64,000 bases of DNA, from the IMG/VR virus record IMGVR_UViG_2770939580_000003, positions 41,062-105,061 of that record. One strand, given 5' to 3'. The notes under the pieces are model-generated. The model was not told the origin of the DNA. It saw nothing but the letters and a program-made list of their open reading frames with translations, and made no database searches. Of this stretch, positions 2,524-59,025 are shown piece after piece. This stretch comes from a virus (taxonomy: Duplodnaviria > Heunggongvirae > Uroviricota > Caudoviricetes). Position 1 is the first letter of the stretch. Every line of letters begins with the position of its first letter. The translations under genes and the position numbers were made by a program.

Positions 2524-4011
2524 CTAAAGAAAATTTACAGTTACCATTGGCTTATCATCAAAGTCATTCTTAGTCCAAATTACATTATGAATGATACTTT
2601 TGTAAGCTCGATTAAGTTCTTTAGGGTCTTTCGTTTTTGTTATCTGATTCAGGACATCATTAACGCTGATAAGCATATCTTCATTTTTAGCATTCAGTGA
2701 ATTATCCAGTTGTGTCTTAATTACTCTATATTCTTCTTCAAGTTTATTGAGAATTTCATTTGCACGATTTAACCTCTCCAAGTACTTCTCTTTCGTGTAT
2801 GTTCCATCTTCTAAAAAATCATGGATTCGCTCAATAGCATTTTCTTGTTTTTTAATTTCTTGAATTTTGGTTTGAGCTATGTCAGCTAAGTTGCTCATAT
2901 CGGATGAACTTAAACCTTCAGCAATAGCATCTTCAATTTGTTTCTTTTTAATGATTAAAGCATTCAAAATGAAGTTTGTAACTACGTCTGACCTATCGCC
3001 TAAATTGCTGCATCTTTCACCAAACGGGTTTCGATGAGTACAAGATTTAAGCGTGTCATAACTTCTTCCTGTTCTTTTCTGGATAGACATCGTGTGATTG
3101 CATTTTCCACATATAACCAGTCCAGACAGGGCGTTTTTCCCAGAGCGACTTGCTTTTGGGGTTTTAATTTGAGAGCCAATTATAAACATTATCTTATCAT
3201 GTTCGAGTTGAGTTTTAACTGCTGTATGACAATTATTATAAATGATCCATTCATCTTTAGGTTTATAAACTAAGTCTCCCGTGTTGGACATTTTTCGTTT
3301 TTTCCCAACAATCACTTTTCCGAGATGAACTTCATCGCACAGTATCCTTCTAACAACCGCTGGATTCCACATTCCATCTCTTGGAGATTTAATACCCATC
3401 TTATTGAGCTCCCATGCAATGTCTGTACTAGACCATCCACTCATACATTTCTCTACCATAAATCTGTATGTAGGGAGGTTTTCTTCTACAGGTTCAGCTC
3501 TTCCAGTTTGAGCGTTTCTAATATACGGGAACGGTGGAACTCCGTTACTCCATAAGCCCTGTTTTGCATTTCTCGCTTTACCTTGTCTGAAACGTCTAGA
3601 TATTTGCTTATATTCCATTCGAGCCATCATGCCTTCGAATTCAGCCATAAGCATATCCGTGTCATTATTGTAATCGTATACTCTCTGAGGAGTAACCAAA
3701 AGTGTTTCTGATCTAGCAAATAATTTACTCAGTGTGGCTCTATCAACCTCATCACCACGACTCAGACGGTCAATGTGAATAACAAGTACAGCATCGAACA
3801 TCCCTTGTTCAATATCACTCATCAATTCAGTCATTTTAGGTCTTAGTGAAATTGAATCTGCTGTCCCAACCTCAGCATATTCAACATAAGCCCAACTATT
3901 CTGTTCGCACATAGAAAGTAATTCAGCTCTGTGCTTTTCCAAATCTTTTTCTTCGTCACCGCGCGATTTACGCAGATAAACTGCTACGTGCTTAATTACG
4001 TATTGACTCAA
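2524..4011 (-). CDS. large serine recombinase (resolvase catalytic domain + recombinase domain + zinc ribbon/coiled coil), 495 aa; integrase
   Basis: N-terminal VAVYLRKSRGDEE (catalytic Ser), ..DRLSRGDEVD.., size and C-terminal Cys cluster CGKCNH typical of SprA/phiC31-type integrases. Confidence 0.9.
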   Translation of the reverse strand: MSQYVIKHVAVYLRKSRGDEEKDLEKHRAELLSMCEQNSWAYVEYAEVGTADSISLRPKMTELMSDIEQGMFDAVLVIHIDRLSRGDEVDRATLSKLFARSETLLVTPQRVYDYNNDTDMLMAEFEGMMARMEYKQISRRFRQGKARNAKQGLWSNGVPPFPYIRNAQTGRAEPVEENLPTYRFMVEKCMSGWSSTDIAWELNKMGIKSPRDGMWNPAVVRRILCDEVHLGKVIVGKKRKMSNTGDLVYKPKDEWIIYNNCHTAVKTQLEHDKIMFIIGSQIKTPKASRSGKNALSGLVICGKCNHTMSIQKRTGRSYDTLKSCTHRNPFGERCSNLGDRSDVVTNFILNALIIKKKQIEDAIAEGLSSSDMSNLADIAQTKIQEIKKQENAIERIHDFLEDGTYTKEKYLERLNRANEILNKLEEEYRVIKTQLDNSLNAKNEDMLISVNDVLNQITKTKDPKELNRAYKSIIHNVIWTKNDFDDKPMVTVNFL

Positions 4012-5361: not shown

Positions 5362-8300
5362 CTATGCATTCTCCTTATTCTTGTACTTGTTATAACCTGT
5401 GATCCAAACATCTGTCTGATCTGTGGCTCTGAAACCGCCATTTCCGTCTGGGACCTGTCTTGGTTTTTTCTTATGGCTCGTTATTTCAATTAAATCTCCT
5501 TTCTCAATTTTCAACGCTTTATCTTTGACGTTAAATGTTTTCTTGTCCATTTTAAAGACACGTTCATCGCCATTACGAAGATTGTATAAGGTAAGCTTGG
5601 GACTGTATTTAAGATCTAAATCGGTAACTACACACCAACCCGATTCTATATCGGGAAATACAGCTTCGGAGTACCCTAGCATTTCTTTTTGGAACATCAC
5701 TTCTTCGTTTGGCATAACTTTGGAGTAGTCATTTTCAGTGCGAATCCTATTTTCTTCATCAATTAGATCCGCTATCCTCTTAAGTTTAGTCTTCTCAACG
5801 TATGTTTTTTTATATTGAGATCTTCCACTTGAGAACTCTTTGTGCAATGTCACCAATAAACTAATGTCACCAAATTCTCTAAAGAACCCAAGACGAGTCA
5901 ATATATCAGTTTGACGACTGTTGACCGATGTTTTTTCGTTTAAATCCACTAGCAATTCAACAAATGATGCATATGTATTTTTACTTAAGGATAATAGTTC
6001 TTCTGCAATCTTTTCATTAAGGTATTTAATAGATTTTAAACCTTTGTAGATAGTATTATCGCCCTCACTAAATGAGTAATCAGCGTTAGACTTTCCAAAT
6101 TTTATTGGTGACACCTCAATACCTCTTGTTTTAGCATAGTTAATTATTTGACCCGTCTTTTCTATGTTGTCATTATTTATATTCAACATCACAGTAAGAA
6201 AGGCTAGAGGGTAGTAGTGTCTTAGATATCCATTTCCATAACCGATGTGAGAGTAAGGATTTGAGTGGTTATCGGAGAATCCATAACGCTGTGCATCATC
6301 TATGACCTGCAAAAAAGGCTCTAAGACAGCAAGCGCATCTTCTTCGGTCTCTCCGTAATCCATATTCATTTTTTGCACAAAACGCTTCCTTATCTCTGGC
6401 AGAAACTTCTCTGTTCCTTCTTTTTTACTCAATCCCCTTCGAACACTATCGCTTTCTGCCATTGTAAACTCGCAGAACTCTACTAGAAAGTTCATGATTT
6501 GTTCTTGATATACTAAGTATCCAATAGTACTCTTCAGAAAATTATTCAATGCTTCATGACCGTGATCTTTGAATATGCCATTTGCCAAAGCTTGTCTGTA
6601 TGAGTCTCCTGATGGTCTAATTGCTCCATTGCCAATTGAGAATAGCTCAATATAACTAAACATATCATTTTGTTCTTCTATCTTATGTATTGTTTCTTCG
6701 CTTAGTAGATCTTTTAGATATGCTTGGGCAGAATTACTTTCCCATTGGAATATTCCCAAACCAGACTCTCGTATGGAATTCCAGACATCTTTATCATCAA
6801 CATCCATATTGTCCGGTGTAAGCCGTTCAATTCCAGCTAGCTTACATGTCTCATTGATAATTTCATTGTTGTCCAAACCCAAAATATCCAACTTTACATA
6901 ATTGAGTCCATCGAGTTCTTTCATATTGATCTGACTTACTGGATACTTACTTTCTTTTGTATAACAAAGACCAATGTTATCTTCGAGACTTACTGGAGAA
7001 ACTATGTAGCCAGAAGGATGAGATCCTATGCTTACTATAACTCCTTGCACCAATTCAACATATTTGAATAATTCGGGATACATATCGAGATACTTCGGAT
7101 CTACTCTATCGACCTTCTTATCGTCTTTGAATACTGATTTAGCAATGGCGTCTACTATCGCAAGATCCATACCTAGAGCCCTTCCAACTTCTCTAATTGC
7201 TCCTTTTAGTGCCACAGTGTTAAAGGTGATAATCTCTGAGAAATGAATACCGGGAATTGTTGCTACGTAATCAATAACATCTTGCCTTTTAGATGGAGGC
7301 CAGTCCAAGTCAATATCGGCAAGCGAGATACGCTCTGGATTCAAGAACCGGAAAAAGTTCAGCTTATGTTTGATACTATCCATCTCAGTAATTTTCAATA
7401 AATACGCAATCAAGCTTCCGTTAACTGATCCACGACCATATCCTTGATAAATATCATTACTATGCGCCCAATCAACTACATCTTTCTGTAGGAGCATATA
7501 GTCAATTGCTCCAACCTTTTTATATGTATCAAACTCTTCTCTAATCCGTTTAAAATATGTATCTTTTTTTACTTTGTCAAACTTATTAATTCCTCGTTCG
7601 ATTACACCGACATTTATCTTTTCTTTAAACACTTTTTCTGAGTCGTCGTGCAGCTTAGGATACTTTGGCGACGAATCAATCTTAAATTCTTCGATCATAT
7701 CAGCCATAACGTTTGTATTATGTATAGCTTCAAGATAAACATTTCTAGGTAAAGCCGATTGCTCCTCAAACATTTTGACAACTTCAGGATATGTTTTAAA
7801 GGTTAGATCGAATGCATCTTCATCTCCATATGTCGCACCCTTAGCCTTCATTAGAATCTTACGTGCATCAGCATGAGATCTGTTTAAGGCGTGAGTGTCT
7901 GTTCCTGCAATAAGCGGTATACCTGTTTCAATTGATAAACTGTGTAGATGCTGGTTGAATAGCTTTTGCTCTGGGTGAGTGTGATATTGAATCTCAAAAA
8001 ACATTCTATGCTTATTGCTAACAAAGAAATCCATAAATTTGTTCATCATCTGCTTGTTGTCATTTTTAATAGCTCTCCATAACGGAGATGCTAGACAAGC
8101 AGATGTCATGATAATATTATCCGAAGTATTGAACAGTTCTTCAAAAGTAATCCTTGGATTATAATAATAATGTCCGTCATCTTTATTGTTCGAGAGTGAA
8201 GTCAGTTTGTTTAATTCCTGCGCTCCCTCAAGATTCTTTGCAATAAGCATGTAATGATAATTGTCGCGAATCAAACCACTTTCTTTGTCATTGTGCTCAG

Positions 8301-8505
8301 TGAGGTATACCTCATTCGCATGAATGTACTTCATACCTTTCTCTTCGATAGACTGCTTCTTCTTGACCCAATTAAAAACATTACCGTGTTCAGAGAAACA
8401 TATTGTTTGCATGTTAGCTTTTTCTGCTTCATCGATGTATTGTTGATATTTAGTCACAGAGTCTATAGCCATTGACGTTGATGGATTGCTAGTATCTGAA
8501 TGCAA
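5362..8505 (-). CDS. DNA polymerase III alpha (DnaE)-like replicative polymerase with N-terminal PHP domain, 1047 aa (SPbeta YorL-like)
   Basis: N-terminal PHP motifs (FSEHGNVF, HANEVY), long polymerase core; size; context with primase/helicase. Confidence 0.8.
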   Translation of the reverse strand: MHSDTSNPSTSMAIDSVTKYQQYIDEAEKANMQTICFSEHGNVFNWVKKKQSIEEKGMKYIHANEVYLTEHNDKESGLIRDNYHYMLIAKNLEGAQELNKLTSLSNNKDDGHYYYNPRITFEELFNTSDNIIMTSACLASPLWRAIKNDNKQMMNKFMDFFVSNKHRMFFEIQYHTHPEQKLFNQHLHSLSIETGIPLIAGTDTHALNRSHADARKILMKAKGATYGDEDAFDLTFKTYPEVVKMFEEQSALPRNVYLEAIHNTNVMADMIEEFKIDSSPKYPKLHDDSEKVFKEKINVGVIERGINKFDKVKKDTYFKRIREEFDTYKKVGAIDYMLLQKDVVDWAHSNDIYQGYGRGSVNGSLIAYLLKITEMDSIKHKLNFFRFLNPERISLADIDLDWPPSKRQDVIDYVATIPGIHFSEIITFNTVALKGAIREVGRALGMDLAIVDAIAKSVFKDDKKVDRVDPKYLDMYPELFKYVELVQGVIVSIGSHPSGYIVSPVSLEDNIGLCYTKESKYPVSQINMKELDGLNYVKLDILGLDNNEIINETCKLAGIERLTPDNMDVDDKDVWNSIRESGLGIFQWESNSAQAYLKDLLSEETIHKIEEQNDMFSYIELFSIGNGAIRPSGDSYRQALANGIFKDHGHEALNNFLKSTIGYLVYQEQIMNFLVEFCEFTMAESDSVRRGLSKKEGTEKFLPEIRKRFVQKMNMDYGETEEDALAVLEPFLQVIDDAQRYGFSDNHSNPYSHIGYGNGYLRHYYPLAFLTVMLNINNDNIEKTGQIINYAKTRGIEVSPIKFGKSNADYSFSEGDNTIYKGLKSIKYLNEKIAEELLSLSKNTYASFVELLVDLNEKTSVNSRQTDILTRLGFFREFGDISLLVTLHKEFSSGRSQYKKTYVEKTKLKRIADLIDEENRIRTENDYSKVMPNEEVMFQKEMLGYSEAVFPDIESGWCVVTDLDLKYSPKLTLYNLRNGDERVFKMDKKTFNVKDKALKIEKGDLIEITSHKKKPRQVPDGNGGFRATDQTDVWITGYNKYKNKENA

Positions 8506-8678: not shown

Positions 8679-9701
8679 CTATAAGTTATAGACACCTTCA
8701 ACCTTCTTTGCTTCAGGTAGCTGAGATTCAATATCTCGTGCAGTAATTTCCATTAAGTTTTGACGTGACATCTTCTCGCGTCTCTTCATTAATCGAACCG
8801 CCTGATGTCTGATTGCCTTCTCGATAACATTTCTTACATATCTGGCATTACTAAAATGAATCCTCAGGTCTTTTTCATCTTGTATGATCTGTTTAAGTTT
8901 TAAACCTGCTTCATTTGTAAAGCTATAATCTTTCTCTGAAGACATCTTTAAAGCTATCAGCATTAATTCGTCTGTGGAATAATCATCAAAGTTAATCTGG
9001 ATAGGAAATCTTGAGGGCAATCCGGTATTAATCTGAAGGAAATCGTCCATCTCGATAGGATATCCAGCCAATATGATGATTAGATCGTCACTCTTATCTT
9101 CCATAACTTTTACAAGTGTATCTATAGCCTCTTTACCAAAGTCTTTTTCTCCTCCACGAGCAAGACTATACGCTTCATCAATGAAAAGTATCCCACCCAT
9201 AGCTTTTTTTACAAGGTCACGAGTCTTCAAGGCTGTATGACCAATGTACTCCCCCACTAAATCAGCACGTTCAACCTCAATCAAATGGCCTTTGCTTAGT
9301 ACACCCATTTTGTTGAGCATTTTGGATATTATTCTTGCTACTGTAGTTTTTCCTGTGCCGGGATTACCTTTGAAGATCATATGGTAAACCTGTTTGCTGT
9401 TCTTCAATCCCTCATCGCTTCGGTACTTGTTGATTTGGATTAATGAATAAATCTCATATATCAGATCCTTGACTTTATCAAGCCCAATCATTTCTTCCAT
9501 CTCATTAAAAATGTCTGCTGCGGATTCATTATTGTGATTACTTGTTAATGATATGTCCTCATTTTGCTCTAACGGCGCTCTGAGCCCACCATCAGCGTTG
9601 AATATAATATTGATCCTTGAATCATTAACAGTAATTTTCCTTAAACTTTCGTCCACAGTCATCACCTCGTTAAGACAGTATATGCTCCTGTGTTGGTGCA
9701 A
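8679..9701 (-). CDS. AAA+ ATPase, SpoVK/CbbX-like
   Basis: Walker A GNPGTGKTT, Walker B ILFIDEAYSL, sensor/arginine finger region; about 100-aa N-terminal extension. Confidence 0.75.
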   Translation of the reverse strand: MHQHRSIYCLNEVMTVDESLRKITVNDSRINIIFNADGGLRAPLEQNEDISLTSNHNNESAADIFNEMEEMIGLDKVKDLIYEIYSLIQINKYRSDEGLKNSKQVYHMIFKGNPGTGKTTVARIISKMLNKMGVLSKGHLIEVERADLVGEYIGHTALKTRDLVKKAMGGILFIDEAYSLARGGEKDFGKEAIDTLVKVMEDKSDDLIIILAGYPIEMDDFLQINTGLPSRFPIQINFDDYSTDELMLIALKMSSEKDYSFTNEAGLKLKQIIQDEKDLRIHFSNARYVRNVIEKAIRHQAVRLMKRREKMSRQNLMEITARDIESQLPEAKKVEGVYNL

Positions 9702-9756
9702 AATGCTTATCTGATTTTATTGATTATGATATATGTATAGTAGGCCGAAGCCTACA

Positions 9757-10029
9757 TTAAAATGAACCAAATAGTTCGTCCAGTTTGTCATCGTATACCT
9801 CTGAACTTTCCATTTGTTCCTCTTCGCTCTGCATGGAAAGTTCCGTATCCTCCTCAAAAGGGAGAGGCAATTCGTTTATGTTAAGGCTTGAACCAGTACC
9901 AAAAAACAATAGTCTCAATGCCCTCCTAACCACATCGCTTTTATCTTCGTGGGGAGGTAATCTTTTCCACGCTTCAATAAGATCCTCATCTTTATTGGGT
10001 CTAAGTCTTGCTCTAGCAGCTATTTCCAT
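9757..10029 (-). CDS. ribbon-helix-helix small protein with acidic tail; candidate ParR/AlfB-like adaptor for the upstream actin-like ATPase
   Basis: N-terminal KDEDLIEAWKRLPPHEDKSDVVRRALRLL (RHH-like), overlaps end of actin-like gene by 10 nt. Confidence 0.4.
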   Translation of the reverse strand: MEIAARARLRPNKDEDLIEAWKRLPPHEDKSDVVRRALRLLFFGTGSSLNINELPLPFEEDTELSMQSEEEQMESSEVYDDKLDELFGSF

Positions 10030-10997
10030 GATTTCTTTCCAATCTTTCCATATCCTCTAACTTGAGCGAGTTGATCCATCAAAATCTTGTTTGGAAGATC
10101 TAAGTATTCAAAAATAAATCGAGCGGCCCCACCAGCGATTAAGTAGATGTCAAAGTTGGTATTCAAACTTTCAATTTCATTTTTGATTTGTCTAGCTAAC
10201 GATTTAAATGCTTTTTGAATTAGTGGAACTATATTGTGTCCAAGGTAATTACCTGAGATAACATAAGTGTCTAATTCGTATATAGCTGGAGTATGCCCAG
10301 TTAGTTTTTGTATGTAAGTTTGTAATAGCGTGTACGCTTTCTCTACCCCCACTAAAACACTTTTGGATTCTTTTAATATACTGGATTTGCTGAATCCTAG
10401 TAAATTCAAAGTGTAAAATCCCAGATCGACAGTTAGTATCTTTTGTTTGGCTGCTTTTACTTTAGCGATTTTGCCATCGTCACCTAATAGATAGTCCATT
10501 GTAACACCTAATCCTTGAGGAACTATCTTGCATTCTTCAATAACAGGCTGGACAGTAATGTTGTTTCCCTTACCTTTACGAATCTTATATTCACCCTGAT
10601 CAGCCAATCCCAAAAGTTTTTGTTCAAATGGAGCTTTTTGTTTAAAGTAAAAGTCAATAGGAAGTCCACTTACTAATTTCACTTTTTCTTTTTTAGCTAA
10701 ATACCCCAGAGTAGTCTTCATGACCACTTCACTTGTCTCAGCCTCGGCTTTATTATTATTGAGAGAGAAGTATTTAACATCACTGTATTCTACGGCAGCA
10801 TTTCCTACGAACAACTCATCGTTGTAAATGAAGTGGTCTGATTTTATATTTTGTTCAAATAAGTCTTTAGCTTCCCCAGCTATAGTTGGTTGACGAAAGA
10901 ACTTTCCTCCTCTCTCACCTTTAGTCCATTTAAATCCAAGGTCTAAATTTAATGTGTTATACAAAATGGTACAACCTCCTTTTGAAGTCATGTACAC
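10020..10997 (-). CDS. actin-like ATPase (ParM/StbA family); true start probably the TTG at 10964 preceded by AAAGGAGG
   Basis: phosphate-1 NLDLGFKWTKGE, phosphate-2 VDLGFYT, adenosine IYLIAGGAARF motifs; RBS AAAGGAGG lies inside the annotated 5' end. Confidence 0.6.
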   Translation of the reverse strand: MYMTSKGGCTILYNTLNLDLGFKWTKGERGGKFFRQPTIAGEAKDLFEQNIKSDHFIYNDELFVGNAAVEYSDVKYFSLNNNKAEAETSEVVMKTTLGYLAKKEKVKLVSGLPIDFYFKQKAPFEQKLLGLADQGEYKIRKGKGNNITVQPVIEECKIVPQGLGVTMDYLLGDDGKIAKVKAAKQKILTVDLGFYTLNLLGFSKSSILKESKSVLVGVEKAYTLLQTYIQKLTGHTPAIYELDTYVISGNYLGHNIVPLIQKAFKSLARQIKNEIESLNTNFDIYLIAGGAARFIFEYLDLPNKILMDQLAQVRGYGKIGKKSWK

Positions 10998-11100
10998 AGA
11001 TATACCAGATTGAGATAGTCTGTTCCATTTGTGTACATTTGTGGCCTCTATAGATTGATTGTACCATTTATAATTGTTTATGTACAGTATTATCTTTGTA
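10990..11100 (-). promoter_or_regulatory. cluster of TGTACA hexamer repeats (4 copies) upstream of actin-like gene; candidate centromere/operator
   Basis: TGTACA at about 10990, 11033, 11069(GGTACA variant), 11090 read from sequence. Confidence 0.35.
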
Positions 11101-11106
11101 TTTTAA
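11086..11106 (-). repeat. 21-bp intergenic motif copy (plus AGTATTATCTTTGTATTTTAA)
   Basis: exact reading. Confidence 0.7.
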
Positions 11107-11159
11107 ATATCTACTTTACACCCCTGTATCACCCATGATCCTGTAAAATTGATGTTTCA

Positions 11160-11651
11160 TCAGGAATTTGCCTTCAAAAAAGGCTGATATCTCAAGGATA
11201 ATTCAGTTAGCCATTCTTCGTTATCACAATTTTCACTTCGAGTAACCAAAGCAAGATCAATCATTGAGGATATTTGCTCCCCAGTAAGTTCAACATCGTC
11301 TATTTCTACATCGCAGTAAAAATTCACTATCTCATGATACTTGTTTGGATTGGCAACAGCATTTAACTTGTTTTCTATGTATAATTCTAAGTTCACTTTA
11401 GCTTCAGGATACTCTTTCTTAATCATGTTGACTGCCTCATGGTATGTAAACTTTCTCAGATGATCTCCATCAAACTGAAAATTGATAATGAAACTATTGA
11501 AGTGAAGTCTTCTTAGTATGTAGTCATATGATACTGTTTTTTGATCGAAAATGTATTCCATGTTCAACTTCTTCTCTTTAAAAGCTGGATAGAATACTCT
11601 CAAATGCTTATCGAACAGCTTAAACAATTCTTTGTCATTTAGTTTTATCAT
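11160..11651 (-). CDS. hypothetical protein
   Basis: ORF track; tiling. Confidence 0.5.
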   Translation of the reverse strand: MIKLNDKELFKLFDKHLRVFYPAFKEKKLNMEYIFDQKTVSYDYILRRLHFNSFIINFQFDGDHLRKFTYHEAVNMIKKEYPEAKVNLELYIENKLNAVANPNKYHEIVNFYCDVEIDDVELTGEQISSMIDLALVTRSENCDNEEWLTELSLRYQPFLKANS

Positions 11652-12351: not shown

Positions 12352-12631
12352 CATTCTCAATTCCCTCCCCAAAATAATCATTAATTGCTTCCTCAATATA
12401 GCTTTTTCCAATATTCAATGAATAGTTAACATTAAAAACGGTTTGATATACTAATGGACATATTTTCTTTTTGATTTTTACATTGTGGCTGTGAATTACT
12501 CCTACTCTTTCGATCCACTCTGAATTATTCTTATAAATGATTTTATATGTAACATTATCACGTTCAATGTATTTAATGACTTTATTTCTGCTCAAAACGC
12601 TCCTCTTTTCTATGTAAAATATAAGTTTCAT
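12335..12631 (-). CDS. hypothetical protein
   Basis: ORF track. Confidence 0.4.
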   Translation of the reverse strand: MKLIFYIEKRSVLSRNKVIKYIERDNVTYKIIYKNNSEWIERVGVIHSHNVKIKKKICPLVYQTVFNVNYSLNIGKSYIEEAINDYFGEGIENGQSTT

Positions 12632-12643
12632 TTAAACTATGTA

Positions 12644-13282
12644 TTAAGAAAATGCTGGAGCCAACTTAGTAATACTACGCTTATATGCCTGATGAACTGC
12701 CTGACGACTCACCTTTAACTCTTTGCCGATATCTGTTAATGCATCGCCCTCAAAAAAGTACTTAAATGAAACAACTTTTTCTTTTTCGGTTAAACTAGAC
12801 TCAATTAAATTAGTTAGTTTATGATTAAACTCATCTTCTTCAACCTTGTCAAAATCGAGATGAGATTCATTTGATAAGACCTCCGCAATAGTCTTTTCAC
12901 TGCTTTGATCTGCTTTCCCAAGAGGTGTATCTAAACTAATCGAATCAAATGAGCCTCGACACTTCATGTGCTTATAGCGTTCAGCTTTCACAAACTCCAT
13001 CCATACAACTCGACCAGCATACGTAACAAACTTAATGTCCTTTGAGGTATCATATGTATCAAATGCAACAATCAAACCGTATAAACCCAAACTTACCAAG
13101 TCATCTAAATCGTCCGTGTACCCAGCTTTTTTCCATTTGTTTGCCAGTTTTACTGCGATACGAATATTATTGTTGATTACCTTATCCTTCAGCTCTTTAC
13201 TGTCAGTTTCTTTTGCTACCAAAATCATTGCCTCATTATCAAAATTCGGGTCATACTGTTGTAGCATCATATTAAAATTCAT
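12644..13282 (-). CDS. sigma-70 family RNA polymerase sigma factor (regions 2 and 4 only), phage-encoded
   Basis: region 2: DLVSLGLYGLIVAFDTYD...FVTYAGRVV; region 4 HTH: LTDIGKELKVSRQAVHQAYKRSITKL. Confidence 0.75.
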   Translation of the reverse strand: MNFNMMLQQYDPNFDNEAMILVAKETDSKELKDKVINNNIRIAVKLANKWKKAGYTDDLDDLVSLGLYGLIVAFDTYDTSKDIKFVTYAGRVVWMEFVKAERYKHMKCRGSFDSISLDTPLGKADQSSEKTIAEVLSNESHLDFDKVEEDEFNHKLTNLIESSLTEKEKVVSFKYFFEGDALTDIGKELKVSRQAVHQAYKRSITKLAPAFS

Positions 13283-20089: not shown

Positions 20090-20118
20090 TAGTTTATCAT
20101 CTATTATGTTATTTGTCT

Positions 20119-20139
20119 AGTATTATCTTTGTGTTTTAA
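20119..20139 (-). repeat. 21-bp intergenic motif copy (plus AGTATTATCTTTGTGTTTTAA) overlapping dfrA stop
   Basis: exact reading. Confidence 0.7.
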
Positions 20140-26638: not shown

Positions 26639-26693
26639 CTCTTCTTTGTTGTTGTTTACTCTCTTAGTATAAGTTGATAATCACGTTTTGTAA

Positions 26694-26714
26694 AGTATTA
26701 TCTTTGTCTTTTAA
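26694..26714 (-). repeat. 21-bp intergenic motif copy (plus AGTATTATCTTTGTCTTTTAA)
   Basis: exact reading. Confidence 0.7.
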
Positions 26715-34050: not shown

Positions 34051-34333
34051 ACTTGTATTTTATTTAAACTCAGCACTACCAGTTTTATCCTATATCAAAT
34101 ATCACAGTACCTTGGCATGTATTACTTGATAAGGTCTTCTCCCTATGAATAATGATTGAAAATATTCCACACAATCCTTCATAGAATTACCTTTATATCT
34201 GTAAGTACAGTTCGTTGTTAAATCCTCAATTTCAACTTCCACTTTTACAGGTTTACTGACAATCATGTTCTGACCCCTTTCTTTATGAAACAGTTCTTTT
34301 ACCTAGATATCTGGATTAAGAAAGCCTTATATA

Positions 34334-40591: not shown

Positions 40592-41659
40592 TCATTTGGA
40601 AAATGTGCAAATACAATCATCCAAAAACGTATTGAATTGTTCTTTGCCCTTATCAACAGGCGACATCTTGTCTGCAAATATATCTTTATTATCATACACA
40701 TAATAGACTCGTCTACCCTTAATCTGCCTCAATTGATTTAAAACAAACTCTTCATCCTTACCTTTATCCCACAAAAACACTAAATCAATATCAATCCCTA
40801 AATCTTTGAGAAGTTTAACCTGAACAGGAGACAGTCTATCTCCCTCTATGGATACAGAGTTTTTAATTCCCCATCCCCATAAGGTCATTGCTGTTTTTGC
40901 ACCCTCAACAATGTACACTTTTTTCTTATCTTGAATATGAGCTCTAGATCTGTGTAAATTAAATAGTTCAATAGCTTTGCTACAAGGGTAAATATACGAA
41001 TATTTTTTATGGGCAAGTAATTCTTTATCTTGACCGACATATCTACCTTTAACGCCTATTAATTTCCCCATTGAGTTATGAATAGGTATACTCACTCTGT
41101 TCGTGGGTAAATGGTATCCAATACCAAACTCTCTTTGGGTATGAACATCTATTCCTTCACCAATCCAATCGTACCACCCATCTAAAATGAATTCATTTAA
41201 AACTCTGTCGTCTAGAACTGGATTGCTTGTCACTTCATAGATTTTAGGACGTTGCTTTTGTATATCCCTAAGCCACCAATTCCAATCGGTCTTCGGTTTC
41301 TCGTTAGGAAAGTTTGTTTCAGTGTGTTCATAACCTAGAGAGTTACATATGTAAGTTTTAATTTGATACAGTTTAGACCTGACTTCATCGAAGTTTTTAC
41401 ATTCGTATAAAACAAATCCAACCAGAGCATATATGTCTCCACTTATACCTTCTCCAACCAGTTCTGTATGAAGTGTCTCATTCAGGTAAATCTGTGCTCC
41501 CCGTGGATTTTTCGATCCGGGTAGTCTAGCTGTGACTAGATCGTCTCCGCTGCGTCCTGATTTAATCTTTATATCTAAACAGCCCAACTCTTCTAATAGC
41601 TGCCCAATTGTGCCTTCATCATATATTCGTTCTTTTAATAGTTTGAGCGAGTCAGACAC
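40592..41659 (-). CDS. DNA primase (TOPRIM domain)
   Basis: VYIVEGAKTAMTLW...DIDLVFLWDKG (E..D..D TOPRIM acidic residues); adjacent to helicase. Confidence 0.65.
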   Translation of the reverse strand: MSDSLKLLKERIYDEGTIGQLLEELGCLDIKIKSGRSGDDLVTARLPGSKNPRGAQIYLNETLHTELVGEGISGDIYALVGFVLYECKNFDEVRSKLYQIKTYICNSLGYEHTETNFPNEKPKTDWNWWLRDIQKQRPKIYEVTSNPVLDDRVLNEFILDGWYDWIGEGIDVHTQREFGIGYHLPTNRVSIPIHNSMGKLIGVKGRYVGQDKELLAHKKYSYIYPCSKAIELFNLHRSRAHIQDKKKVYIVEGAKTAMTLWGWGIKNSVSIEGDRLSPVQVKLLKDLGIDIDLVFLWDKGKDEEFVLNQLRQIKGRRVYYVYDNKDIFADKMSPVDKGKEQFNTFLDDCICTFSK

Positions 41660-45090: not shown

Positions 45091-45194
45091 CTCCCTTATG
45101 ATCTTCCATTCTCCGTATATCTTCCATTTCCTTATCCTATATTCTGATGAAACTGTACTTTTACTTAGAACTTCTCTCAGAACGTTTTTTTATA

Positions 45195-50693: not shown

Positions 50694-50780
50694 GGTTTCG
50701 CCCCCTACATATTATCAATTAATTATTCAACAAATATGTCTCCATTTCCTGCTGTCATTCCATTTATATCATACTATTAT

Positions 50781-50801
50781 TATATTATCTTTGTGTATTA
50801 A
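50781..50801 (-). repeat. 21-bp intergenic motif copy (plus TATATTATCTTTGTGTATTAA); here flanked on minus strand by TTGACT(-35)...TATAAT(-10)
   Basis: exact reading. Confidence 0.65.
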
Positions 50802-58290: not shown

Positions 58291-58332
58291 AATTATTTCG
58301 CCTCTTCCTATGAAACGTGCCTTTTACTTAGA

Positions 58333-58932: not shown

Positions 58933-59004
58933 ATCCTTTCATAAGAAAAACGGCGATGTAACAACTCGTTAAAGTCATTATATCACCGTTTTCACCAAAT
59001 GTAT

Positions 59005-59025
59005 AGTATTATCTTTGTGTTTTAA
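59005..59025 (-). repeat. 21-bp intergenic motif copy (plus AGTATTATCTTTGTGTTTTAA) overlapping stop of Gp157 gene
   Basis: exact reading. Confidence 0.7.

Follow-up and report, generated by a model that had tools for sequence, protein, structure and literature searches.

Why would a large phage that integrates into the genome of its host carry a gene pair of the kind by which plasmids are partitioned, and where in the DNA should the sites of such a pair be sought? The question is raised by a stretch of 64,000 nucleotides (positions 41,062 to 105,061 of the IMG/VR virus record IMGVR_UViG_2770939580_000003; hereafter the window, meaning this whole stretch), in which a minus-strand operon encodes an actin-like ATPase, here called ALP, and, overlapping the end of its gene alp, a small protein that we call the adaptor. 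A preliminary description of the locus had seen in it a phage-borne parMRC-type positioning system that might serve either plasmid-like maintenance or the positioning of replication factories. Our analysis makes it rather probable that the two genes form a type II (ParM/ParR-like) operon for DNA positioning in an integrating temperate Paenibacillus phage, and that this operon is preceded by a fold-back leader.

The minus-strand open reading frame (ORF) 10997..10020 holds the motifs DLGFKWTKG, VDLGFYT and IAGGAARF, from which an actin-fold ATPase had been proposed, and profile searches, structure prediction and structural comparison all agree with this assignment. The gene itself occupies 10020..10964 on the minus strand and encodes 314 amino acids: the in-frame TTG at 10964 comes 10 nt after the Shine-Dalgarno sequence AAAGGAGG (10982..10975, minus strand), and the stop codon TAG lies at 10022..10020. 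The choice of this TTG, already made in the preliminary description, is confirmed by an independent gene call on a public contig, which gave the identical 314-aa product, and by all relatives, which share the start and keep the GGAGG of the Shine-Dalgarno sequence. ALP matches the Pfam families ALP_N (PF17989; E value 2.9e-19; 70.2 bits against a cutoff of 26.3) and MreB-like_C (3.8e-6; 27.9 against 27.8 bits) as well as PHROG 691, 'partition protein' (5e-35), and the closest sequences in the PDB are Dh-cParM1 (3.7e-10) and the ParM of pCBH (6e-8). When an AlphaFold model computed with 39 homologues (predicted local distance difference test, pLDDT, 92.9; predicted template modelling score, pTM, 0.89) was compared with the PDB by Foldseek, pCBH ParM ranked at the top (E 6e-21, template modelling (TM) score 0.78), together with Dh-cParM1 (TM 0.85) and pSK41 ParM; R1 ParM, Alp12, Alp7A, AlfA and MreB followed at lower ranks, and the best 26 matches in the PDB are all ParM, Alp12, Alp7A, CorM or Ta0583 (E 6e-21 to 1e-12). 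In the phosphate-1, phosphate-2 and adenosine motifs, G182, T185, G278 and G279 are invariant in our alignments A3 and A6, and D8 and G10 are likewise invariant in A3, with a conservation of at least 90% in A6. ALP is therefore modelled with the actin/Hsp70 two-domain fold of the ParM/Alp family, and it should polymerise with ATP. Its relatives are named 'ParM/StbA family protein' by NCBI. The closest isolated phage is Bacillus phage vB_BboS-125, whose ALP is 44% identical and annotated as 'plasmid segregation protein'; SPO1 (gp27.9), CP-51 and 0305phi8-36 (ORF207) encode more distant phage ALPs.

The second gene (9757..10029, minus strand) shares its first 10 nt, from the ATG on, with the end of alp, as had been described, and encodes the 90-aa adaptor. 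The gene architecture of parM-parR and alfA-alfB that had been recognised here is borne out by this small downstream protein of DNA-binding type, with its acidic stretch and the conserved tail at its C-terminus: residues 1-44 are a probable ribbon-helix-helix (RHH) domain, residues 45-76 form a variable acidic linker, and residues 77-90 a conserved C-terminal helix ending in KLDELFGSF. In alignments A1, A4 and A8, R8, R10, D14, D16, R35 and R39 are invariant and the tail reads LDxLLxxF; the conserved N-terminus has the pattern RLRxxKDxDL...DKSDvvRxALRxxxF, and the linker is variable and mostly acidic across the family. The adaptor sequence alone has no match in Pfam or PHROG, it matches no ParR family of Pfam, and tblastn with it gave no match among phages. 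When the family profile was compared with the PDB, the top matches were all RHH proteins, if weak ones: CopG (0.026) and NikR (0.058), then another CopG, a CopG/Arc/MetJ chimera and ParD (about 1), aligned in register across helix A and helix B. The Pfam family met most often is RHH_1, found with 18 of 71 adaptor members at a best E value of 0.0015, which is sub-threshold. The earlier proposal of an RHH partner is thus made probable by these sub-threshold matches to CopG, NikR, ParD and RHH_1 and receives nothing from curated thresholds or from structure: the AlphaFold monomer, with helices at 15-22, 30-46 and 77-88, disorder at 52-74 and residues 2-9 modelled as a helix, gave no meaningful Foldseek match in the PDB, and both model and search are uninformative because RHH proteins are obligate dimers. 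From the profile matches we consider an RHH fold of the N-terminus quite probable. By analogy with R1 ParR (PDB 4a62), the architecture suggests that the C-terminal helix may dock on the filament. There are 18 close homologues, the named ones nearly all from Paenibacillus, and 78 clusters in a library of 1.84 billion proteins; the adaptor represents a previously unannotated, RHH-like family of about that many clusters.

The two genes belong together. In all 21 loci that were inspected directly, from Paenibacillus, Halalkalibacter, Evansella, Sporolactobacillus, Bacillus and phage vB_BboS-125, ALP is followed by a small ORF of 78-105 codons that overlaps it by 4-31 nt, and a tblastn search places the adaptor gene beside alp in most of the more than 40 loci fetched, down to 41% ALP identity. 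The overlapping adaptor of vB_BboS-125 is 32% identical (E 4e-10); the ORF downstream of the SPO1 ALP (gp27.8) is not homologous to the adaptor. Moreover, the pair is exchanged as a unit. In comparisons with loci L046, L022, L006 and L016, whose flanks are 76-84% identical to the window at the nucleotide level, the similarity ends at 11143 (L046 and L022) or 11139 (L006) and is back at about 9792/9760, and within the divergent segment the protein identity is 54% for ALP and 49% for the adaptor, as compared to 91% for the neighbouring AAA+ ATPase. The exchangeable cassette consists of exactly the promoter, the leader, alp and the adaptor gene, inherited as one unit. Since these four parts make up the divergent cassette, the cognate cis-acting sites are expected inside 11143-10965. 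The mosaicism, with its sharp breakpoints at a copy of the ATGAAAC motif discussed below and near the 3' end of the adaptor gene, recalls the incompatibility or specificity types of partition systems.

The cassette carries its own predicted promoter. A promoter scan identified a sigma-A-type promoter, P_alp (11058..11086, minus strand), with the -35 box TGTACA (11086..11081), a 17-nt spacer and the -10 box TGGTACAAT with its TG extension (11066..11058); transcription would start near 11051, about 7 nt after the -10 box. The pattern T(G/A)TACA-17-TGnTAnAAT is kept in all 23 Paenibacillus loci scored, and in many of them the -10 box is a perfect TGnTATAAT. No terminator was predicted between the upstream gene and P_alp. 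Directly adjoining the -35 box lies the 21-bp motif TTAAAATACAAAGATAATACT (11086..11106, minus strand), which had been read as part of a centromere or operator. This reading has to be given up, as the motif (TTAAAAyACAAAGATAATACT) recurs at other promoters of the prophage, at 20113-20139, 26688-26714, 58999-59025 and 50778-50801, always on the minus strand. The copies near 20139, 26714 and 59025 stand directly upstream of a TnnACA -35 box that is followed after 17 nt by a (TGn)TAnAnT -10 box, and the copy at 50801 lies within the spacer of a TTGACT-17-TATAAT promoter; relatives of the alp locus have an A-rich sequence at the corresponding position. We also asked whether the motif might itself be a promoter, its GATAAT serving as the -10 box, and rejected this, since a properly spaced -35 box is missing and the motif directly precedes a TnnACA-17-TAnAnT promoter. 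To judge by its placement, the motif is a shared upstream element (UP-like or a regulator site) of one promoter class, serving at least four promoters of the prophage, and not specific to the alp operon.

The promoter has a second role in our reading, which concerns translation. The minus-strand RNA from the -10 box to the start codon can form a nested imperfect hairpin of about 110 nt (10961..11072), in whose outer stem AAATGGTACAA (11069..11059) pairs with TTGTACCATTT (10974..10964), between the Shine-Dalgarno sequence and the start codon, while the discriminator pairs with the Shine-Dalgarno sequence itself and the inner stem is made of two ATGTACACARAT boxes. The minimum free energy of the RNA 11072..10961 is -34.6 kcal/mol (z score -4.2). 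Over 23 related loci the mean z score is -4.0, with 20 of the 23 below -1.5, and the same design recurs despite differing sequences: the -10 box and discriminator face the Shine-Dalgarno sequence, spacer and start, around an inner leader stem. The complementarity between -10 box and start region is 6.8 nt within loci and 4.9 nt between loci (p<5e-5), and the outer arms form a duplex of -16.7 kcal/mol with their own partner as compared to -12.2 kcal/mol across loci (p<5e-5). The arms covary. In an unfitted MAFFT alignment of 19 distinct loci, from which RNAalifold recovers the outer stem, 96.6% of the outer-stem cells are paired versus 92.8% after shuffling (0 of 500 shuffles), slid registers give 22-61%, and there are 12 double-change cells versus 4.2 in the shuffled controls (0 of 500). 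Two outer-stem positions exchange A-U, G-C and U-A or C-G pairs, and G-U pairs are tolerated, with U-G at the junction of -10 box and Shine-Dalgarno sequence in 17 of the 19 sequences and wobbles elsewhere. As the 5' arm ends immediately before the predicted transcription start near 11051, the complete stem would be present only in RNA that reads through from upstream. The predicted probability of the region from Shine-Dalgarno sequence to start codon being unpaired is accordingly 0.14 in the read-through RNA versus 0.44 in the promoter-initiated RNA (21 of 23 loci). A search of Rfam with the leader gave no credible family and one chance match to a snoRNA (E 0.47). These folding predictions suggest that the hairpin probably blocks the translation of read-through transcripts. 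In one of the related loci, L015 of Paenibacillus vulneris, a terminator-like stem (GTAAGGAGG...CCTCCTTAC) lies about 120-90 nt upstream of the alp Shine-Dalgarno sequence, and upstream of the promoter; this single case is consistent with another means of insulation from read-through.

What, then, are the TGTACA hexamers which had been counted, four in number including variants, as a plausible centromere together with the 21-bp motif? They are indeed present. Exact TGTACA occurs at 10991-10996, 11032-11037 and 11081-11086, so that three of the 22 copies in the 64 kb fall within 96 bp; a cluster of at least three copies per 100 bp arises in 2% of 400 Markov-simulated windows. TGTACA is not enriched across the window (22 observed versus 17.8 expected), and neither is AAATGGTACAA; for lack of a window-wide enrichment, only the local TGTACA cluster and its conservation are meaningful. 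The iterated centromere finds no support, as the elements turn out to be promoter elements and hairpin arms: one TGTACA is the -35 box, the variant TGGTACA (11066..11060) lies within the extended -10 box and forms with TGTACCA (10973..10967) the exact 11-nt inverted pair AAATGGTACAA, and the other two TGTACA hexamers are the cores of the ATGTACACARAT boxes. Of these, box A (ATGTACACAAAT, 11027..11038, minus strand), a candidate operator or centromere half, is the 5' arm of the inner stem and is preceded by the tandem 10-bp units CACAAATGTA and CACAAATGGA, and box B (ATGTACACAGAT on the plus strand, 10990..11001) is the 3' arm, just upstream of the Shine-Dalgarno sequence. The boxes are 41 bp apart from centre to centre, in an inverted repeat with 20-nt arms that are 80% complementary, and the 12-mer of box A has just two exact copies in the 64 kb, both of them here and inverted. 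Partial copies of the box coincide with the -35 box, the -10 box and the start region. A box of the form TGTA-N1-2-ACA is found 10-25 nt past the predicted transcription start in about 17 of the 23 loci. Several distant loci from Sporolactobacillus, Evansella and related viral contigs (L019, L021, L050-L053, L020 and L018) lack an own promoter and the long hairpin, and they have a compact palindrome next to the alp Shine-Dalgarno sequence (TGTGGT-N7-ACCACA, GTGGCAC-N3-GTGCCAC or TGTCATAC-N3-GTATGACA), which is a good candidate for the adaptor operator there. Because of the recurrent TGTA-N1-2-ACA box and of this palindrome in distant relatives, boxes A and B are possible operator or centromere sites and the best candidates for them.

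The operon belongs to a large temperate phage that integrates into the genome of Paenibacillus barcinonensis, and not to a plasmid prophage, since the element encodes a large serine integrase (2524-4011; PHROG 95, 7e-86), about 6 kb from the alp operon, and since the locus and its relatives are found in chromosome-sized contigs. A hypothetical protein of P. barcinonensis, encoded on a contig of 6.39 Mb, shares 100% identity with the adaptor, and the ALP relatives sit on Paenibacillus contigs of 6-8.5 Mb as well as in IMG/VR prophage predictions of 100-220 kb, where they usually lie 2-15 kb from one end. Megablast found nothing similar to the region among phage records. For the same reasons (the integrase and chromosomal contigs of 6-8 Mb), the plasmid-like maintenance considered in the preliminary description is unlikely; an extrachromosomal phase after excision is possible.

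Taken together, we propose the following course of events. P_alp, with its 21-bp UP-like motif, the -35 box TGTACA and the extended -10 box TGGTACAAT, would drive a leadered bicistronic mRNA from which ALP, polymerising with ATP, would be made, and the translation of the adaptor would be coupled to that of alp through the 10-nt overlap. The adaptor, a small RHH dimer, would bind phage DNA and capture the filament by its C-terminal LDELFGSF helix; its likeliest sites would be the two inverted ATGTACACARAT leader boxes, and by occupying them it would also repress the operon. In view of the integration of the phage, the system would most likely act after induction or infection, when it may move or organise the excised, replicating phage genomes, and would not serve the upkeep of a plasmid prophage. 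Read-through transcripts from upstream genes would hold both arms of the hairpin and thus sequester the ribosome-binding site, whereas transcripts from P_alp, which lack the 5' arm, would be translatable. Several observations weigh against parts of this scheme. No single RHH match of the adaptor reaches its curated threshold, and the monomer model is poor (pLDDT 63). Three of the 23 loci lack a stable hairpin (L008, z score -0.95; L011, -1.6; L015, +0.97), and in the window the Shine-Dalgarno sequence is still partly paired even in the short promoter-initiated RNA. A classical array of at least four direct iterons is missing, and the two good boxes are both also explained by RNA pairing. Finally, identical adaptor N-termini (in the window, L005, L006 and L008) accompany different arm sequences.

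This last point bears on the most serious of the other explanations, namely that the nested palindrome acts as DNA, either as a symmetric operator or centromere for several adaptor dimers (on the -10 box, box A, box B and the start box) or as a cruciform, with the RNA pairing being incidental. It would account for the core ATG(G)TACA common to all boxes and for the conserved TGTA-N-ACA box after the predicted transcription start in most clades; moreover, the adaptor of the CGP3 prophage of Corynebacterium glutamicum, to which we return below, binds in its leader, and ParR-type proteins autoregulate by covering their own promoter, as at R1 parC and in pSK41. We nevertheless consider it unlikely, if worth keeping in mind: the arms covary where loci differ despite identical adaptor N-termini, for which base pairing is a better explanation than protein specificity, G-U type pairs are tolerated at the positions mentioned (U-G in 17 of 19 at the junction), and the pairing runs through the discriminator and the Shine-Dalgarno sequence, where there is no common box. 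If the hairpin thus acts as RNA, it might still be a processing or stability element, i. e. an RNase III site that separates the alp message or a 5' stabiliser, instead of a fold-back block. The inner hairpin stays in the promoter-initiated RNA, which would suit such a function, and the classical substrates of RNase III include the long, imperfectly paired stems of polycistronic phage RNAs (T7, lambda N). The outer stem, however, covers specifically the Shine-Dalgarno sequence, the spacer and the start codon, and in essentially every locus the predicted transcription start follows directly on its 5' arm, a placement that is specific to the fold-back design; we therefore regard a processing element as improbable.

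With respect to the proteins, a classical parMRC locus for plasmid partition, with the TGTACA boxes and the 21-bp motif as the centromere of a low-copy plasmid prophage, would agree with the gene architecture and the ParM fold as well as with the local clustering of TGTACA, and Bacillus plasmid prophages reportedly often carry ParM systems (PMC8026635, PMC6669507). Such a locus is hard to reconcile with a large serine integrase 6 kb away and an element that resides in chromosome-sized contigs, an array of direct iterons is missing, the -35 and -10 boxes account for two of the presumed repeats, and unrelated promoters also have the 21-bp motif, all of which makes this explanation very improbable. 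We give slightly less credit still to the idea that the small protein is a mere repressor of the operon and that ALP acts on the host, in cell shape, division or takeover, instead of on phage DNA. Repression is the typical function of RHH proteins, a centromere is so far only a candidate here, and the strictly lytic phages SPO1, CP-51 and 0305phi8-36 also encode ALPs. Yet a conserved amphipathic C-terminal tail after a variable linker is a hallmark of filament adaptors like ParR and would have no obvious purpose in a plain repressor, and the best structural relatives of ALP are the ParMs of partition systems and not MreB. Judged by analogy, the positioning or replication of phage DNA after induction fits better and is our best functional guess for the ALP-adaptor operon.

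We would go one step further, and here only as a tentative suggestion. The promoter may be its own translational switch: with the -10 box and discriminator as the 5' arm of a stem of about 110 nt over the Shine-Dalgarno sequence and start, ALP and adaptor could be made solely from promoter-initiated, adaptor-controlled transcripts, and the whole unit might circulate among giant Paenibacillus prophages as interchangeable specificity cassettes which, like plasmid incompatibility types, would prevent cross-talk between co-resident phage genomes during their positioning for replication.

The genes around the operon are in keeping with the earlier account, which had placed it between a DnaE-like polymerase gene (8505..5362) and a sigma-factor gene (13282..12644); this interval also holds an AAA+ ATPase gene and several small ORFs. 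Elsewhere the window encodes an endolysin (709-1497), RusA, ribonucleotide reductase (RNR) and RecJ. The DnaE protein is 57% identical to those of the 160-kb Bacillus siphophages FADO, PK-3 and Kirov. The AAA+ ATPase (8679-9701, minus strand), of the SpoVK/CbbX type (AAA and AAA_lid_6; PHROG 4339), lies between the adaptor and DnaE genes. It was considered as a third component of the system and rejected, as it is outside the exchangeable cassette and present in just about half of the related prophages. In Bacillus phage FADO (L003, 165 kb), a ParA-type ATPase gene and an overlapping 125-aa ORF are found at 534-1686, about 7.6 kb upstream of the DnaE gene, with no ALP in the stretch examined; this ParA cassette may be a non-orthologous replacement of the positioning module. 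The 160-kb Bacillus phage Kirov has a pair made up of a ParM-like and a ParG-like protein (PMC10454425). The Kirov pair and the FADO cassette near DnaE suggest that the need for an active DNA-positioning module beside the replication genes is general in this phage group.

Both ends of the cassette are marked by further elements. Two nucleotides past the adaptor stop codon, a stem-loop GTAGGC-UUCG-GCCUAC (9740..9755, minus strand) that lacks a U-run is probably the 3' end of the bicistronic mRNA, as a stabiliser or a weak terminator. Exactly at the upstream boundary lies a copy of the motif ATGAAAC-N5-TTTTAC (11143..11160, minus strand), of which the window has 13 copies on both strands versus 0.29 expected (0 of 100 shuffles), among them those at 12614-12631 on the minus strand and at 34285-34302, 45147-45164 and 58310-58327 on the plus strand, and eight more. 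We rejected the motif as the start of a family of small proteins (MKxxFY), because the ORFs that start at it have just 2-36 codons in all but two cases. A 14-codon mini-ORF (MKHQFYRIMGDTGV) at 11116-11160 (minus strand) begins where the 163-aa gene upstream ends, its ATG overlapping the stop codon there (TGATG); it is probably no gene but a side effect of the motif. Several plus-strand copies, read as GTAAAA-N5-GTTTCAT, stand about 20 nt upstream of the Shine-Dalgarno sequence of minus-strand genes. This placement suggests a promoter or regulator site specific to the phage, which may be used by the phage sigma factor.

None of this overturns the current understanding: the proteins are of a kind that is already annotated, and the hairpin design and the exchange of cassettes are the sole, mildly novel aspects. 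Phage actin-like systems are widespread and almost unstudied, with AlpAC of CGP3 as essentially the one worked-out example, and the locus adds to them a strongly conserved Firmicute family of three parts, i. e. ALP, an RHH-like adaptor and a defined cis region. Its location in large integrating prophages favours a role in lytic DNA replication or positioning over one in plasmid inheritance, the sharp boundaries of the cassette show where the cis-acting site should lie, and the predicted fold-back hairpin would be a compact example of how a dosage-sensitive operon can be shielded from read-through.

How does the operon compare with the known systems? By fold, ALP is closest to the ParMs of the ParM/ParR/parC systems of R1, pSK41 and the Clostridium botulinum plasmid pCBH and to the chromosomal Dh-cParM1 (E down to 6e-21, TM 0.78-0.85), with which the operon also shares the order of motor and adaptor, a probable RHH-type N-terminus, a peptide at the C-terminus that may bind to the filament like that of R1 ParR, and a putative cis region upstream that overlaps the promoter. 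Unlike in these systems, the ALP sequence is just 20-23% identical, there are no 4-10 direct iterons, and the carrier is an integrating phage instead of a plasmid. AlfA/AlfB of pLS32 and Alp7A/Alp7R of pLS20 are likewise Firmicute actin-like partition operons, with a small downstream adaptor that is also an autoregulator; Alp7A and AlfA are structural matches of ALP that rank below the ParMs (E 6.5e-14 and about 1e-10, respectively). They differ in being plasmid-borne and in having centromeres of tandem repeats. Among phages, the annotated ALPs of vB_BboS-125, SPO1 (gp27.9), CP-51 and 0305phi8-36 (ORF207) belong to the same PHROG 691; none of the annotated phage ALPs, the Kirov pair included, has been functionally studied. 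vB_BboS-125 and the Sporolactobacillus group lack the long hairpin embedded in the promoter, and the latter group has the short palindrome on the Shine-Dalgarno side.

For the hairpin, the nearest parallel that we see is IS10/Tn10, where fold-back inhibition of transposase translation from externally initiated transcripts was reportedly described by Davis, Simons and Kleckner in 1985. As in IS10, the 5' arm of the stem that sequesters the ribosome-binding site is predicted to lie upstream of the gene's own transcription start, so that only read-through RNAs would be blocked. Unlike in IS10, promoter elements (the -10 box and the discriminator) supply this arm here, and a par-like operon stands in place of the transposase gene; the analogy is one of design only.

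With regard to biology, the CGP3 prophage of C. glutamicum offers the closest comparison. There, the adaptor AlpA binds to the alpS repeats in its own promoter and leader and links the phage DNA to filaments, and AlpC and AlpA are both required for efficient replication of the phage DNA (PMC4446434, PMC5539076). The organisation in CGP3 differs in the gene order, which is alpA-alpC as compared to ALP first in the window, in the loose TTAAnnG repeat of alpS, in the phylum of the host and in that no fold-back hairpin has been described. The likeness, which is one of gene organisation, is nonetheless broad: in both cases an integrated prophage carries the gene pair near one of its ends, an actin-like ATPase is co-transcribed (as predicted here) with a small DNA-binding adaptor, the sites of the adaptor lie in its own promoter and leader or, in our operon, probably do so to judge by the cassette boundaries and the uniqueness of the boxes, and the proposed role is in the transport or replication of phage DNA after induction.

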